This document shows positions 36,143 to 44,166 of a DNA stretch of 64,000 nucleotides, piece after piece; position 1 is the stretch's first letter, and every line of letters starts with the position of its first letter. The notes under the pieces were generated by a model. The model was not told where the DNA came from. It ran no database searches and saw nothing but the letters and a program-made list of their open reading frames with translations. The position numbers and the translations under genes were made by a program. The stretch lies in assembly GCF_054482525.1 (NCBI RefSeq), contig NZ_CM137006.1. One strand, given 5' to 3'.

Positions 36143-36224
36143 CAACCAAACGACTCGGGGTGCCCTTCTGCGTGAAGGCTGAGAAATACCCGTATCACCT
36201 GATCTGGATAATGCCAGCGTAGGG
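36143..36224 (+). repeat. attL-like direct repeat: orphan copy of the 5' 82 nt of the thiM TPP-riboswitch leader
   Basis: 82/82 identity with 44023-44104, checked by eye. Confidence 0.85.
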
Positions 36225-37743: not shown

Positions 37744-38469
37744 ATGGTTAAAAATTTAGGCAAAAAATACAAGTATGGCGATCAACCGATAAGAGCTATT
37801 ACCATACAGATAATTGCTAATCAGTTTGGTGGGGCTGCAACGGCTAAGCAGGTAGATGATTATCTTAGAAAGCTATTTCCATCTTATAAAGATAATACTT
37901 GGCTCAATTTAATTGCTAATACAGTTAATTGTAAGCGGAGCTACTGGAGTTTCAACAAAACTGCCCGACGAACTGATGATGTAACTCATCGGCATCATAA
38001 GTATGACCGATTGTTCAAGCGTGGAAATATTTTTGAAATCTATCAACCATCTGTGCACGGTATTTGGGAATTATACCAGGATTTAGAAGGGATGTGGCGT
38101 TATCGTCAAGTAAAATCGGTTTTCGAAGAAGCTGTTGAGACGGCTGCAAAATTATCTTCAGTGGAACGAAAGCAAATTTTAGCGACAGAAAGTAAAATCC
38201 CGGAACTAATCGAAGTAACAACACGAGTTTATAAACGAAGCCCATATGTAGTTGCTGAAGTTCTTTTGAGAGCAAATGGAAAATGTCAATATTGTAAGCG
38301 AGATGCTCCTTTTCTAAAGGAAGATGGTACTCCATTTCTAGAAGTTCATCATATTGAGTGGCTTTCAAAGGGGGGGGAGGACTCTGTGGAAAATGCTATT
38401 GCATTATGTCCTAATTGCCATAGACAAGCCCATTATGGCGATCTGACATTACTACCTGTTAATAAATAG
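37744..38469 (+). CDS. HNH nuclease with McrA-like C-terminal domain and unrecognised N-terminal domain (candidate type IV restriction enzyme)
   Basis: C-terminus CQYCKRDAPFLKEDGTPFLEVHHIEWLSKGGEDSVENAIALCPNCHRQAHYG closely parallels the McrA HNH motif as I recall it. Confidence 0.7.
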   Translation: MVKNLGKKYKYGDQPIRAITIQIIANQFGGAATAKQVDDYLRKLFPSYKDNTWLNLIANTVNCKRSYWSFNKTARRTDDVTHRHHKYDRLFKRGNIFEIYQPSVHGIWELYQDLEGMWRYRQVKSVFEEAVETAAKLSSVERKQILATESKIPELIEVTTRVYKRSPYVVAEVLLRANGKCQYCKRDAPFLKEDGTPFLEVHHIEWLSKGGEDSVENAIALCPNCHRQAHYGDLTLLPVNK

Positions 38470-38546
38470 GCTTGATGAAAGTTCTATTTCTATATTTTTC
38501 AATATACAAATTTCCCCAAAAACGGCGTGAATATCACGCCGATCAA

Positions 38547-38894
38547 TCATACTTCAGAACACATACTCAATGTGTAAACAGCCATCTCCCCATCGGGATT
38601 AGAAGGGCGTAATACAAATATCGGTATACTGCCATTGTCAATGTATGTGGCTGCAACCCCTCCGTCAGGTGTAGCATACATCTTTGCGATGCTTTTTTGA
38701 CCTACAAAATCAAGTCTCCAAGTTTTACCGCCAAGATTTATGGTCATTTTTTTATCTTGTATATCAAAAGTTGAATCTACAGAAACTTTCTGACTTCCCG
38801 AGTCAATATGACCTTCCTGTATTGCTTTACAGGAAAAGGTTGTGGCGTGGCCCATCACTGGAATTAACAAAGCGGCAAATACTAGTTTTTTCAT
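38547..38894 (-). CDS. Small secreted protein, possibly lipoprotein (about 115 aa)
   Basis: Signal peptide MKKLVFAALLIPVMGHA; no recognisable domain. Confidence 0.5.
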   Translation of the reverse strand: MKKLVFAALLIPVMGHATTFSCKAIQEGHIDSGSQKVSVDSTFDIQDKKMTINLGGKTWRLDFVGQKSIAKMYATPDGGVAATYIDNGSIPIFVLRPSNPDGEMAVYTLSMCSEV

Positions 38895-39004
38895 TTGTCT
38901 CCCTTGGTGTGTCAAATGGATGGTGATGCTAATAATACATGATTGATTCAAAATGTCACGATTAGTGCGTGGTTAATTGGTGCGTCAAATTGCATCTTTG
39001 TGCC

Positions 39005-39469
39005 ATGCGAAAGAATCTGAGATACCTTTTTGGACAACGAGTAAAAGAGTTCCGTATAGCTATTGGCTTAAGCCAAGAGGCCTTTGCAGATCGGTGTGGT
39101 TTTGCACGTAGTTATATGAGTCGAATTGAGCGTGGTTGCTCTAATGCATCTCTTGATGCAATTGAGGTTCTGGCTGACGCTTTGCGTATTGAGCCTTGGC
39201 AGTTACTGGCTTCTGATTCAAGGAAACCTGATGATCAGGAGGTACTTGTTCCTTATGCTGCAGATGGGTCGTGTTTTCATCCAGGATTGGCAAGTACTCG
39301 CGATGGTTCGTTTAGAGTAGGGGAAAAATCAGCCCAGAAACGTTTCAGTTCGTTCAATGAAGCTCTCGAATACCTTCGTGGAATGGAAACCGCGAAGTGG
39401 CGTAGGCCTAATGCTAGTGGTAATTGGGGAATTGTATCTGCGGTTAAATGGGATCGACTGAATCAATAA
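39005..39469 (+). CDS. XRE-family HTH protein with about 80-aa C-terminal domain of unknown function
   Basis: N-terminal HTH (LSQEAFADRCGFARSYMSRIERG); start placed at MRKNLRYL. Confidence 0.65.
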   Translation: MRKNLRYLFGQRVKEFRIAIGLSQEAFADRCGFARSYMSRIERGCSNASLDAIEVLADALRIEPWQLLASDSRKPDDQEVLVPYAADGSCFHPGLASTRDGSFRVGEKSAQKRFSSFNEALEYLRGMETAKWRRPNASGNWGIVSAVKWDRLNQ

Positions 39470-39635
39470 GATATCAGTAATTTTCGGGCCACTCCACAAG
39501 GCAATAAGTGGCTTAGTGGTGATTATCGAAGGGGAATACAAGCGAGCACCTAGGCACCATTGCAAGAACCGCTCAACGCTGAGATCAGCAAGCCCCGATT
39601 TTTGCCGACCGTCCCTGTCAAATATCAAGGAGGCA

Positions 39636-40187
39636 TTACGCCACCTGCTCTTTCTTGATACGTTGCACCGTCTGCGTGCTGACACTGAAATCTTTTGCTA
39701 CGCTCCGAATTGAGCCACCATTCGCGAGAGCGGCAGCAATTCCCGCTCGATCAATTGCTTTTCCATTACCACGTTTTGCTATACGTCCAGCGGCCTTGGC
39801 TGCGGCGATCCCTTCACGTTGACGCTCAAGCATCATTTCACGTTCCATTTGTGCCACTGCTGCAAGAACTGTGAGCATCATATTCCCTGCGGGAGAGTTC
39901 TTTCCTGTCTTAAAGTCTTCTTTATGGAAATGCACAGACACGCCGCGCTTTGTTAATTGCTCTACAGTTGCCAGAAGGTCGGCTGTATTACGACAAAGGC
40001 GATCAATACTATGGACGTGTAACACGTCACCCTCCCGCACATAGTTCATCATTGCCTCAAACTGTGGGCGCTGAGTGTTCTTGCCTGACGCTTTATCTTC
40101 AAAGACTTTATCAAGAGTTACTCCTGCTAATTGACGGTCTGTGTTTTGTTGCACAGTCGATACCCTAATGTATCCAATATTAGCCAT
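39636..40187 (-). CDS. Serine recombinase (resolvase/invertase family)
   Basis: N-terminal IGYIRVSTVQQNTDRQ with catalytic Ser; C-terminal HTH. Confidence 0.85.
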   Translation of the reverse strand: MANIGYIRVSTVQQNTDRQLAGVTLDKVFEDKASGKNTQRPQFEAMMNYVREGDVLHVHSIDRLCRNTADLLATVEQLTKRGVSVHFHKEDFKTGKNSPAGNMMLTVLAAVAQMEREMMLERQREGIAAAKAAGRIAKRGNGKAIDRAGIAAALANGGSIRSVAKDFSVSTQTVQRIKKEQVA

Positions 40188-40674
40188 CTTCTTTTTTCTT
40201 CTGTATTGATTTGTGTGTAGTGATTATTGAACGTGTTGATTAGGTGTGTAAAGTACTTTTTTCACTACGAAATTCGAAGTTTTTTAGTGTGGTGATTTAG
40301 CCTGCCTTATCACTACACTTCTTGCATGAGAATCATGTAGTTACATTTTGGTAAAATTAGCAAGCTATTAAATTGTGTGTTTATTTTGAAAAAATAATTT
40401 TTGTTGCATTAAAGAAAACTTGTTCGACAAATAATAGGTTGATTTTTGATCAATAATTTCTGATAGTGCTCTGTAAGCCGCATTACACAAGGCGCAGCGA
40501 AAGTGATGTAAAAGTGAAGAAAGCTAACATTGCACTTTTAAACTACTTTTCATTGAATTTTTTAGTATGGAATTACACAGGAATAAGTTAGGGATATTCT
40601 ATGATTTACACAGGGAATATAGGGGGATTATGGTATTACACAGAGTGAGTGCTATGTGATGATTGGTAGTAACG

Positions 40675-40782
40675 GTAGGTCACTGTGAACTAGGGGGGTA
40701 GGTCACTGTGAACTAGGGGGGTAGGTCACTGTGAGCTAGGGGGTAGGTCACTGTGAACTAGGGGGTAGGTCACTGTGAACTA
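40675..40782. repeat. Iteron array: five tandem 22-23 bp repeats (gtaggtcactgtgaactaggggg) next to an AT-rich tract
   Basis: Contiguous direct repeats with no spacers, followed by ataagactataataagactattaataaaacta. Confidence 0.8.
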
Positions 40783-41883
40783 CAATAAGACTATAATAAG
40801 ACTATTAATAAAACTATATTAGATTATTAATTAGATCATAATAATAATATTCTTTATATCTATATATATATGATCTTTTGCCTTCCGGCGTTAGCTTCAC
40901 TCTCTGGCAAGCAGCCTTACTCCGCTACCTTTCGGGCTACGTTGGCTGGCCCGTTCCGCTCACACCGAAAGCAAAGCGTTACTTTCTTCGTGTAACTTCG
41001 TTGGCGGTAACGCCCACGAAGGAATACTATTGCGCTGTGCGCAGTAAGAGTAATCACCTAACCAATCATCTGATTGCTTACGTGTTAACTCTCTCTAACT
41101 CTTAATTACCCTCCTACATTTAATAACTCTCGTTATTCTCTGTAGTTGTGTAATTACTCGAAGAGAGAGCGGCTAAAGCTCAATTACACTCTGCTTTCCT
41201 CGTGTAATTTCACTAAGCCTCAATACAATTTCACTTCCTACATTCTGTAGTCGTGTAATTGTTTTCGGTGGAAAAGCCAGAGGCGACACCGAAAGAGAAT
41301 TCTGATCTTATTAATCTTATCTATCTTAGTTATCTTACTTACTTTATCTACTTTATTATTAATAATAGCTTTATAAGCTCTCTGTGTAGCTCTCTGACGC
41401 AAGAAACAGAGTTCAGGAAGGGAATCACCTTAGAAAAGTGTTCTTTGCGTCATAATGTGTTTTATGAAGGATTCAGAGGTGTTTCATAACAGAGATGTAT
41501 AGAGGATACTTTAGGTAATTAAAAATAAGGGGTCTAAATGCTTCTCTAACAGCATTAAGCAGGGTAGAGAATGGAAACCGCTTTGCCTACATATATAAAC
41601 TCACTACAGGGCTTTACAGAGCGTTTTATAAAGTGACTCTCTGTTTTATATCTACCATCACCTTTTCATATACCTAACAAATACAAAATAAGCCCCTTAA
41701 ATAAGCCTCTGGCGAGCTAAACAGCCATTACATAAGAGAATGTATTGCTTTTATCAAAACCTCGTTAGAACGCGTTTTAGAGCGTTTTAGCGGATAATGA
41801 AGAATAGCACTACACAGGAGAGCACGAATTGCTAAGAAAAAATGTAACTACATGAAAAAGATCAGATTTTTTGTGAAAAGGTA

Positions 41884-41912
41884 TTGACAAACGTCTCTTT
41901 CTGTGCAATAAT
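41884..41912 (+). promoter_or_regulatory. Candidate sigma70 promoter for the downstream operon
   Basis: TTGACA, 17-bp spacer, then TGcAATAAT extended -10. Confidence 0.45.
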
Positions 41913-42038
41913 AGGTATTAGAGGGACAGGAATAGATTCTTATCCTCTAAATAATTAAACCAATGCACCGCACTTTGAAGCCCAAGGCTTGTAAGGTGTG
42001 TTTTTTCTTTTAACCAAATAGAATAAGGAGGCTAATTA

Positions 42039-42227
42039 ATGAAATATTTTACTCCACAGGATGTAGTAGAAGCCTGGAAACGTGGTGAGATCAACCGCTT
42101 TAAAGTAAGGATGTATAGAAACACCGCTCGCCGTTGTGGTTATCCAGAGCGTGAAAAATGTTTTGACGATGCACTAAAAATTATTGATGAACTGCGTAAA
42201 GCTGAGAAAGAAGCAGAGAAAAAATAA
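42039..42227 (+). CDS. Small hypothetical protein (62 aa)
   Basis: Strong SD aggagg; first gene of a tightly packed operon. Confidence 0.55.
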   Translation: MKYFTPQDVVEAWKRGEINRFKVRMYRNTARRCGYPEREKCFDDALKIIDELRKAEKEAEKK

Positions 42228-42249
42228 TAGACAAGAGAAGGAGAAAACT

Positions 42250-42417
42250 ATGAGCGAAACTAAGAAACCAATTCCGCGCACTTACCTACACGTTGACCCT
42301 GAAATCTTCAAGGTTTTATTTGCTGAAGCCAAGAAAAGGCAAATTATGGTCAGTGATTTGATGTTAGAAATCATTACTGAAGCAGCAGAGAACATCAAAC
42401 AAAAAAAGGGTAAGTGA
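42250..42417 (+). CDS. Putative ribbon-helix-helix DNA-binding protein (55 aa)
   Basis: SD aaggag; beta-strand RTYLHVDPEIF followed by two helices, typical of CopG/Arc-type RHH. Confidence 0.55.
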   Translation: MSETKKPIPRTYLHVDPEIFKVLFAEAKKRQIMVSDLMLEIITEAAENIKQKKGK

Positions 42418-42468
42418 TCCTCATTCACTTTAGTAGCGCATTAAGCGTGATTTATAAGGAGATTTTTA

Positions 42469-43158
42469 ATGATTAATCAACTAACTTTTACAAAACACTA
42501 TGACACGTTTGATAATGTATCAAAGATTTATTCTGATAAATTCCCTCAAGGAAAAGATTTAGATCTATTACATATTGTGCTTTATTTTCGATTCCTTAGT
42601 TATCAGGAAAACAACCTTAATTGTTATGAAAGTCACGAAACATTAGCTAAGATTTTTAAGTCTTCAGCGTCAACAATTAAACGTAAGATAAACGATCTTA
42701 AAGAGATGGGATTATTAGAAACATCCCCACATCCTGATCCGTATATTTCATCTTTGATTTACAATGCTCTCCCTCTCACAGATGCACATATTACTCCCCC
42801 AGGAGAATCATCACTCTCTGATCTTTCTGAGGCAGAAGAAGCACAGGAACAACCTAAAGGCCATAAACAGCCTTCTTTTGATGTTCTTGATGATTGGGAT
42901 ACGCCTTTACCCTGGGAGACGGAAGAAACACCTGTTTCATCAAGTGAAAAAGTAGCTAATGATAATGAGGAGGATGTGTTAGAGAATTTTGCCTCTCTTA
43001 TCATCCAGGAGAAACACACAAGAACAGGAGGAGCATCATTTATTGAGTTTGCAAATTCACTAGCTTGTAGATACGGGCTAAAACGACCAAATGGTATTGA
43101 GGCATATTTTTCTAAGAATTACCCAAATATATACGATGACTTTGATATTCCATTTTAA
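42469..43158 (+). CDS. HTH protein with acidic linker and SSB-like C-terminal tail (229 aa); possible replication or recruitment protein
   Basis: SD aaggag; HTH-like ETLAKIFKSSASTIKRKINDLKEMGLLE; acidic low-complexity middle; C-terminus YDDFDIPF resembles the E. coli SSB tip DFDDDIPF. Confidence 0.6.
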   Translation: MINQLTFTKHYDTFDNVSKIYSDKFPQGKDLDLLHIVLYFRFLSYQENNLNCYESHETLAKIFKSSASTIKRKINDLKEMGLLETSPHPDPYISSLIYNALPLTDAHITPPGESSLSDLSEAEEAQEQPKGHKQPSFDVLDDWDTPLPWETEETPVSSSEKVANDNEEDVLENFASLIIQEKHTRTGGASFIEFANSLACRYGLKRPNGIEAYFSKNYPNIYDDFDIPF

Positions 43159-43169
43159 TAAGGAGGGTT

Positions 43170-43415
43170 ATGATTCAATATTTAGTAAAAAATCAAGTAG
43201 ACAGAATTCAGTGTAATGACACAGGAAAACGCATCTACGAGACACTTGTTTACCTCTATAAAGGAAAGCCAACACCGCTAAAATATAGCGATGTGTTACA
43301 TCGAGCAGGTTGCTCTGAGTCAGGTTTAAAATTCTGGCTGAAACAGCTATCAAATTTCGGTGTTATTGAAATGAAAGAGCTGTCTTTTTCTACATTCAAC
43401 CTCAAGAAGTTATAG
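43170..43415 (+). CDS. Small winged-helix-like protein (81 aa)
   Basis: SD aaggagg; last gene of the operon. Confidence 0.5.
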   Translation: MIQYLVKNQVDRIQCNDTGKRIYETLVYLYKGKPTPLKYSDVLHRAGCSESGLKFWLKQLSNFGVIEMKELSFSTFNLKKL

Positions 43416-43580
43416 AAAATAGAATTCATCTATTCCACGCTCTAATTCTATTTCTCTGTTTAATATAAAAGGAAAACATTATTATGGTAATAGCTATGTG
43501 GTGGTTGTTGTTTTTTATGCTCGTAGAAACATATGCAAGTAAGTCTGGAAAACAAAAATAATATATTGATGATTTGTTTT

Positions 43581-43820
43581 TTATAACTTCGTGGTGTCAA
43601 GTCCAGCAGCTTTGAGTCGCTCGGTAAGATTTCTCATTTTGCTGAACTCTGTACCAAAGCTGGCTTTAAGTCCTACACCTTCACAAAACTCTTTTGCCGT
43701 AACCTTTTTCAGATGGTCAGCATATTTGATCATCTGGAGGTGCATTTCCATCGTTTGGCTATTTCGTGGTGCGCTGCTAATGGCTTGCTTAATGTTCTCG
43801 TAGATCTGGGTTTCTGTCAT
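43581..43820 (-). CDS. Small helical hypothetical protein (79 aa), convergent with the operon
   Basis: ORF only; low-GC context. Confidence 0.45.
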   Translation of the reverse strand: MTETQIYENIKQAISSAPRNSQTMEMHLQMIKYADHLKKVTAKEFCEGVGLKASFGTEFSKMRNLTERLKAAGLDTTKL

Positions 43821-44022
43821 TTTTTATCTCACCTATCAAATTTAGATAAATAATATAAATTAGCAAATTAAGATAATCAATAGTTTTTATCATCTGAATG
43901 ATAGATGTTAAATGTTTCTTTTTCATTTCTGATATGGGGTACAAAATGGGGTACACAGAGAAGAAGCAATTAATGGAGGCGAGCTTGCATCTGCAAGCCA
44001 CTTCCCCTAAGCTGGCACAAAA

Positions 44023-44166
44023 TATAGAGATTCAACCAAACGACTCGGGGTGCCCTTCTGCGTGAAGGCTGAGAAATACCCGTATCACCTGATCTGGATA
44101 ATGCCAGCGTAGGGAAGTCACGGACCACCAGGTCATTGCTTCTTCACGTTATGGCAGGAGCAAACT
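44023..44166 (+). promoter_or_regulatory. TPP riboswitch (thi-box) in the thiM leader
   Basis: Contains ctgagaaatacccgtatcacctgatctggataatgccagcgtagggaa immediately upstream of the thiM start codon. Confidence 0.9.

Follow-up and report, generated by a model that had tools for sequence, protein, structure and literature searches.

Replication origins in which iterons lie beside structured DNA are an already known kind of feature. The initiator of lambdoid phages consists of two modules, an N-terminal part that tracks the iterons and a C-terminal part that tracks the next gene. Structured regions with successive stem-loops are found near the origins of ColE1 (RNA I/RNA II) and R1 (CopA), and the intergenic region of f1/M13, about 500 nt of non-coding DNA, carries consecutive hairpins that serve as single-stranded DNA (ssDNA) signals for packaging and for the origins of both strands. 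In lambdoid origins an AT-rich tract adjoins the iterons, to which the initiator binds through its N-terminal domain (PMC7466680). In the oriV of RSF1010 the iterons adjoin the ssiA and ssiB hairpins (PMC8567376). The Vibrio cholerae satellite PLE has its origin in non-coding DNA of 2.7 kb, where repeats of several types occur and only one type constitutes the RepA iterons (PMC7145576). The present analysis concerns a GC-rich block (40880-41300) held by a 7.9-kb island that is inserted in the thiM thiamine pyrophosphate (TPP) riboswitch. The window, i.e., the whole stretch of DNA that was analysed, comprises 64,000 nt of contig NZ_CM137006.1 (NCBI RefSeq assembly GCF_054482525.1), and all positions refer to it unless a related locus is named.

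In our interpretation, to which we assign a probability of about 0.5, the block acts in cis as a DNA module of a replication origin, the element concerned being small and integrative with a plasmid-like replicon; it would work at the level of DNA and encode neither a protein nor an RNA. An initial annotation of the same DNA, based on the letters alone, had described the block as structured and non-coding and had proposed for it an antisense RNA controlling replication, a single-strand initiation (ssi) site or an origin of transfer (oriT).

Iterons, AT-rich tract and the initiator Rep

For comparison, 110 related loci were assembled from Escherichia coli genomes, IMG/VR contigs, species-representative genomes and metagenomes. 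Five tandem iterons of 22/23 bp (GGTAGGTCACTGTGAACTAGGGG; 40674-40783, + strand), detected as a repeat family, lie directly left of an AT-rich tract and the block. The tract (95 bp, 40784-40879, no strand assigned) consists almost entirely of A+T and is a candidate DNA-unwinding element; 200-nt segments spanning it show 35-38% GC, since they include the iterons and the block. This order of iterons, AT-rich tract and hairpin-rich block is common to both types of the block, A (that of the window) and B. At least five sequence types of iterons were distinguished, each of which pairs with one type of the N-terminal winged helix of the initiator Rep (approximately 90 loci). It is because of this match between iteron type and Rep N-terminal type that we regard the region as a replication origin, as a correspondence of this kind is, so far as sequences can tell, what an initiator and its binding sites should show.

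According to its AlphaFold2 (AF2) model, Rep (229 aa; 42469-43158, + strand) has a winged helix in its N-terminal part, which a disordered acidic linker connects to a small helical domain at the C-terminus. It matches a replication initiation protein in PHROG (1.9e-9), and its Pfam HTH_36 score of 24.4 bits is just under the 25-bit cut-off. Searches for Rep in plasmids and phages returned weak partial matches only. The link to replication proposed by the initial annotation stands to the extent that the block follows Rep-matched iterons and an AT-rich tract, and an ssi site is compatible with the data; its two other proposals found no support, as described below.

Two block types and their linkage to Rep and ORF81

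Our analysis revealed only two sequence types of the block, A and B. These have three features in common, namely motif m1 (CCGCTCACA[C/A]CGAA in its shared form), motif m2 (GCGCTGTGCGC) and a hairpin of 9-11 bp just 5' of m2, and are otherwise unalignable. In this hairpin, which lies between m1 and m2, 5 of the 9 pairs are changed on both sides between A and B according to a reading by eye.

The type of the block is independent of that of the iterons, each of the iteron types I1 to I4 having been seen with A and with B. It follows the type of the Rep C-terminal domain with no exception (44/44 for A and 34/34 for B) and, likewise with no exception, the type of ORF81 (30/30 for A and 25/25 for B), the protein encoded after rep. 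ORF81 (81 aa; 43170-43415, + strand) is predicted to be a winged-helix protein (AF2 model with a predicted local distance difference test, pLDDT, of 89). It has no match in Pfam, its closest folds according to Foldseek being the CodY C-terminal domain, HlyU and ArsR winged helices, and its A and B forms are 22% identical. Functional coupling of the block with the Rep C-terminal domain and ORF81 is suggested by this linkage.

Composition, folding and conservation of the block

GC content is 50.5% in the 200-nt segment 40900-41099, as compared to 29-35% in the flanks 40100-40599 and 41200-41499. Relative to shuffled controls, folding was strong both for RNA (40780-41380; z of -6.3 on the + strand and -10.2 on the - strand) and for ssDNA (40880-41300; z of -5.9 and -8.2, respectively), and a 160-nt sliding scan of the 1851-bp gene-free stretch (40188-42038) gave 40908-41307 as the sole outlier, with z to -7.8 and -6.1. 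The stems are almost purely Watson-Crick, with near-zero G-U pairs, and local windows fold alike on both strands. The global strand asymmetry stems from long-range stems, which are not conserved; the best global fold is driven by long-range closing stems that join the two AT-rich flanks, and these stems are disrupted in relatives and were rejected as not real. No other segment of the element is as conserved as the GC-rich core, with an identity of 97.7-97.9% (about 98% for 40876-41075) among 40 distinct type-A sequences, as compared to 54-86% in the genes next to it. A coding role was also rejected. An open reading frame (ORF) of 75 aa does exist (40878-41105), but among 39 distinct homologous sequences the frame measures 38 aa in 22 and 75 aa in 1, owing to many 1-nt indels. 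GC content, folding scores and the lack of ORF conservation bear out the description of the block as GC-rich, structured and non-coding, and no convincing ORF spans it, as had been noted.

The GC-rich core (40880-41100, no strand assigned) contains m1 (CCGCTCACACCGAA in the window, 40956-40969), m2 (41032-41042) and two hairpins. One of these has a stem of 10 bp (40996-41006/41011-41021) and is capped on the + strand by a GNRA-type loop, GTAA; the other lies at 41055-41067/41072-41084. Inverted repeats cttcgtg and cacgaag, pointed out in the initial annotation, are present at 40985 and 41015 and belong to the 10-bp hairpin. The repeated ccgaaag was likewise found, at 40964 and 41288, with its complement at 40928 and 41263. 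A likeness of m2 to Xer/dif sites was considered and rejected by eye, as only one arm is similar.

To the right of the core, repeat and fold analysis revealed a compound hairpin, unit a (TAATTAC..CTACA..AATAAC tctc GTTATT..TGTAG..GTGTAATTA; 41103-41156), followed by a perfect palindrome (AATTACAC, 12 nt, GTGTAATT; 41182-41209) and by unit b, a paralogue of unit a (ACAATTTCAC..CTACA ttc TGTAG..GTGTAATTGT; 41225-41262). A further hairpin (TTTCGGTG, 16 nt, CACCGAAA; 41263-41294) forms the closing end of the block. Beyond it lies a second AT-rich tract (41299-41375) of 9-bp periodic ATCTTA/ACTTTA units, which is 98% conserved with a strain-variable copy number and could represent either another unwinding element or an array of protein-binding sites. 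No strand is assigned to any of these features. The two copies of tctgtagtYgtgtaatt that had been reported for this part occur at 41139-41155 and 41244-41260, a few bases off the positions then given. Unit a has a 19-nt apical insert, the presence of which varies between strains; this self-complementary insert comes and goes exactly at the tips of units a and b. Together with indels in the central hairpin, through which a mismatch becomes either bulged or paired, such apical palindromic inserts point to real hairpins.

Strains differ by gain, loss and conversion of hairpin units, and unit duplications are present in type B. Such behaviour would also be shown by functionless, self-propagating palindromic DNA that spreads through hairpin-mediated duplications and hitch-hikes by the origin. 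We regard this as highly improbable, given that the core is approximately 98% identical and the most conserved part of the element, that just two types exist over 438+ genomes and metagenomes, and that m1, m2 and the position of a hairpin are common to types that cannot otherwise be aligned.

Type-specific boxes on both sides of the iterons

The 7-mer ATTACAC/GTGTAAT is the most over-represented one of the type-A gene-free regions. In the 64-kb window, 7 of its 9 copies fall within 778 bp (40482-41259). Type B has ATTGCAC/GTGCAAT in the equivalent place. In both types the boxes read ATTRCAC left of the iterons and GTGYAAT, i.e., in the opposite orientation, in the block. The left cluster (40482-40641, + strand) consists of ATTACAC boxes at 40482, 40572 and 40635 with the variant TTTACAC at 40605, while the boxes in the block form hairpin stems at 41103-41156, 41182-41209 and 41225-41262, in which the spacing of the two arms varies (values of 12, 18 and 36 nt, in order of size). 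ORF81 is a candidate binder of these boxes.

That the left and right boxes change together between the types, with A-T in A and G-C in B, is also what base pairing would produce. The block might accordingly be transcribed into a structured non-coding RNA that acts, for example, as a primer, in copy-number control or in immunity, and in which the left ATTACAC would pair with the right GTGTAAT. The very strong RNA folding scores and the GNRA-type loop on the + strand agree with such an RNA, as do weak promoter-like sites at 40605-40634 (+ strand) and 40862-40835 (- strand), a similar site being present at the edge of the block in the related locus L003. However, no match to Rfam 15 was found at E <= 1 in 38000-44000, nor any tRNA or tmRNA; there is no intrinsic terminator, and in consensus scans, the only kind made, promoter-like sites were no commoner than in shuffled sequence. 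Local stems that essentially lack G-U pairs and are symmetric on both strands speak against an RNA as well, and none of the E. coli records inspected has an annotated RNA feature at the match site. Covariation, named by the initial annotation as a check of the pairing, lent no support, since compensatory changes are absent within type A; between A and B the position of one hairpin is retained although its sequence differs, which would be equally expected of a DNA hairpin. On these grounds we consider an RNA unlikely, and the antisense RNA originally proposed finds no backing.

Proposed mechanism of initiation

If the block is a DNA module of the origin, initiation may proceed as follows. The five iterons (40674-40783) would be bound by the N-terminal winged helix of Rep, as their co-variation indicates, and the 95-bp AT-rich tract beside them would then melt. 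The second, type-specific half of the origin would be supplied by the block. The boxes on both sides of the iterons would be bound by a type-matched partner, which, judging from the strict linkage, is most likely ORF81 with the Rep C-terminal domain. After unwinding, the inverted repeats would extrude as hairpins and rebuild the boxes in their stems, and the extruded hairpins may act in the style of an ssi site, as a platform on which helicase is loaded or synthesis is primed. Finally, the SSB-like tail of Rep may recruit host partners of SSB, e.g., PriA, DnaG or the chi subunit.

The last step is based on the end of Rep (43135-43158 in the window; gene at 27371-28039 in L005), which reads ..YDDFDIPF in type A and ..YDS[IL]PF in type B. 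In SSB, the C-terminal motif DDDIPF binds DnaG and many other partners (PMC5872125). The Rep tail is closely like this motif of E. coli SSB, and it may therefore mimic the SSB tail and recruit host replication or restart proteins.

The hairpins could also act as an ssi signal by themselves, an explanation that partly coincides with the preferred one. Exposed on the displaced strand, they would be recognised by PriA, DnaG or RNA polymerase, leading to DnaB loading and priming, and the boxes and ORF81 would have no role. Known ssi signals measure 40-140 nt, whereas the block measures 420 nt; moreover, its local windows show no strand asymmetry, no sequence similarity was found among 72,556 plasmids, and the tracking of the Rep C-terminal and ORF81 types by the block would be left unexplained. 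We thus judge this explanation unlikely, despite the strong ssDNA folding (z of -5.9 and -8.2) and the position next to a putative unwinding element, both of which fit it well. The resemblance of the Rep end ..DDFDIPF to the SSB motif DDDIPF (PMC5872125) and the precedent of the RSF1010 origin (PMC8567376) also favour it. A more far-reaching proposal is that about 600 nt of highly conserved non-coding DNA (40876-41475) encode or form a new class of large structured nucleic acid, either an RNA (a long primer or a regulator) or a platform of folded ssDNA, with two alleles read by a small winged-helix protein and an initiator mimicking the SSB tail, so that DnaA would be bypassed via the host restart primosome. 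This we find decidedly doubtful.

A number of observations weigh against the interpretation of the block as an origin module with type-specific boxes. Tandem repeats, a cognate initiator nearby and an adjacent AT-rich tract, as expected of an iteron-type origin, are present, but DnaA boxes (TTATCCACA, with <=1 mismatch), which are common though not universal in such origins, are not found in 40188-42038. The core (40880-41100) is nearly free of boxes, and the box model therefore fails to explain its high conservation. In L037 the 90 bp between the two direct repeats (41155-41244) are missing, and part of the block is therefore dispensable. The GTGTAAT arm of units a and b is invariant while their 5' arms vary without compensation, which favours sequence recognition over pairing; in total, 0 compensatory substitutions were counted within type A versus 32-34 broken pairs, mostly in long-range AT-rich stems. 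In blastn searches, neither type of block had a DNA homologue in 50,697 phage records, and the 72,556 plasmids gave none for A or B. Lastly, the linkage of the block with the Rep C-terminal domain and ORF81 could mirror two ancestral backbones that took up swapped cassettes of iterons and Rep N-terminal domain, and not contact between the partners. As regards other sites of replication origins, no Tus Ter sites were found, and the one match to the IHF consensus (40432) lies outside the block.

Distribution and relatives of the element

Homologues of the gene-free stretch were present in 755 of the 5426 complete E. coli genomes and the type-A block in 438, so that the block and its surroundings are found in 8-14% of these genomes. 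The match site is unannotated in nearly all records inspected, a few of which show a hypothetical protein or an insertion sequence (IS) transposase. Outside Escherichia, a protein word search for homologues returned near-identical E. coli proteins only, and a scan of species-representative genomes gave two loci, both from Escherichia. A metagenome-wide pattern scan yielded types A and B only, plus chance matches in GC-rich soil contigs. The sole yield of a second pattern for viral contigs, L039, was rejected as a chance match in coding DNA.

Some relatives are larger and carry a recombinase, the gene-free stretch and the rep module, followed by major capsid-, tape-measure- and Dit-like genes, as in the thrW element of strain O104:H4 2011C-3493 (L005 19121-31995) and in L004. 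These relatives of approximately 12 kb have no recognisable portal or terminase and may constitute an undescribed phage-satellite-like family. They also have a second gene-free stretch of about 1 kb (25061-26050 in L005).

The structural genes of these relatives make the family look phage-related or satellite-like, and the small island, which has none, would depend on a helper for its mobility. The block could in this light be a site for packaging or helper exploitation (cos, pac or another helper-phage site), of which A and B would be two helper specificities, modular sites with two alleles being typical of determinants of specificity. Against this stand the lack of DNA similarity of either type to the 50,697 phage records, the linkage to replication proteins (Rep C-terminal domain and ORF81) and not to a terminase-related gene, and the location of the block within the origin region, and we hold a packaging site to be very unlikely.

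One locus, L040, is carried by a conjugative IncF plasmid (NZ_CP126938.1, 38779-46964), where the recombinase, the gene-free stretch and the rep module are found beside sopAB, with an IS3 inside the gene-free stretch. This single occurrence on a plasmid and a generic resemblance, i.e., inverted repeats by AT-rich DNA, are what an oriT used in trans by a helper plasmid has in its favour. The island genes, however, have no relaxase or other mobilisation domain in Pfam, the block is not similar to any of the 72,556 plasmids, and the IncF copy is an IS3-interrupted passenger beside sopAB. The oriT put forward in the initial annotation is accordingly scarcely credible.

Insertion site and gene content of the island

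The island is bordered by identical direct repeats of 82 bp, an attL-like left copy (36143-36224) and an attR-like right copy (44033-44114), identified by alignment and without strand, which correspond to the 3' part of the thiM TPP riboswitch. The island duplicates these 82 bp exactly, and a complete riboswitch is retained ahead of thiM. In E. coli SCU-102, a strain identical to the window at the island, the riboswitch is annotated twice.

From the left, the island encodes a tyrosine integrase, an HNH endonuclease, a hypothetical protein, an HTH protein and a serine recombinase, which are followed by the gene-free stretch and then by a 62-aa ORF, a 55-aa ORF, the 229-aa Rep, ORF81 and an HTH_73 protein. 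The HNH endonuclease lies beside the integrase (37744-38469), and at the equal position of L002 (2086-3657; ATCC 8739) a GmrSD-type restriction enzyme is encoded. The integrase-adjacent position is a swappable cargo slot, which suggests that the element is a small defence-carrying island. The 55-aa ORF (42250-42417, + strand), taken from the ORF list, is directly upstream of rep; it has no Pfam match and was guessed to be a ribbon-helix-helix protein from its sequence pattern only.

The serine recombinase (39636-40187, - strand) belongs to the resolvase/invertase family (Pfam Resolvase, 1.1e-38; PHROG DNA invertase, 2e-61) and borders the gene-free stretch. Repeats of the GTAGTGAT type at 40200-40330 (no strand assigned) probably represent its target region, as read from the letters. 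This flank is non-homologous in L004, where a small tyrosine recombinase takes the place of the serine recombinase. In some elements, such as L004 (4901-5479), the tyrosine recombinase at this position has 192 aa. An exchange of this kind fits what may be interchangeable modules for multimer resolution. Near the recombinase, a perfect inverted repeat of 17 bp was found (40333-40349/41839-41855), the copies of which are 1489 bp apart. In relatives the left copy is constant and the right one, located approximately 30 bp upstream of a strong promoter, varies; the perfect repeat is thus particular to the present sequence and probably does not represent paired recombination sites. A Hin/Gin-type invertible segment under the control of the adjacent recombinase was rejected, given this lack of conservation of the pair and the absence of any inverted arrangement among 10 loci.

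The promoter in question is sigma-70-like (TTGACA, 17 nt, TG-AATAAT; 41884-41912, + strand), serves the rightward operon and has a homologous site in L003. Between it and the first ORF lies a leader of about 120 nt with a pair of hairpins and a T-run (promoter and leader, 41884-42038), which could be an attenuator or a regulated terminator.

Implications and comparison with known systems

In the literature searched, a description of this element family was not found, nor was one of a 420-bp two-allele hairpin module linked to an initiator domain and a small winged-helix protein. The gene-free stretch and Rep define an overlooked family of small integrative replicons with swappable integrase-adjacent cargo (HNH here, GmrSD elsewhere). 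If the block is part of the origin, as we prefer, the origin would consist of two independently exchanged specificity modules, one combining the iterons with the N-terminal domain of Rep, the other combining the hairpin block with the C-terminal domain of Rep and with the winged-helix protein. This would offer a natural system for asking how iteron initiators pass to helicase loading and priming without DnaA boxes, and it bears on whether the SSB-tail mimic of the initiator recruits host restart proteins. As for genome annotation, a recurrent "empty" stretch of 2 kb would be explained.

Among systems with consecutive hairpins, f1/M13 differ in that the island has neither a rolling-circle initiator nor filamentous-phage genes; here the hairpins are alike on both strands, and no similarity was detected. 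The antisense control of ColE1 and R1 differs as well, for the block shows no promoter-terminator pair, Rfam match, G-U pairs or strand bias, and an iteron-binding Rep is found instead. PLE is a useful analogue, resembling the island in its small size, its integrative nature and a very large region free of genes that contains several repeat types. Its replication depends on a helper phage, and homology to the island was not detected.

With regard to lambdoid phages, the likeness concerns the initiator, as in Rep too the N-terminal part follows the iterons and the C-terminal part follows the next gene. Unlike in these phages, the origin is not within the initiator gene but 1.7 kb upstream of rep in non-coding DNA, and the downstream partner is an 81-aa winged helix and not a P-like helicase loader as in the O-P pair. 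The 420-bp hairpin module has no counterpart in lambda.

RSF1010 has two ssi signals of 40 nt, one per strand, together with its own primase and helicase, whereas the block has approximately ten hairpins over 420 bp, the island has no primase or helicase gene according to Pfam, and there is no sequence similarity between the two. The layout of the island is nonetheless RSF1010-like, with iterons, an AT-rich tract and then hairpins. In oriV of RSF1010, as proposed here, the initiator acts on the iterons and unwinding exposes the origin hairpins that are needed to start DNA synthesis (PMC8567376).

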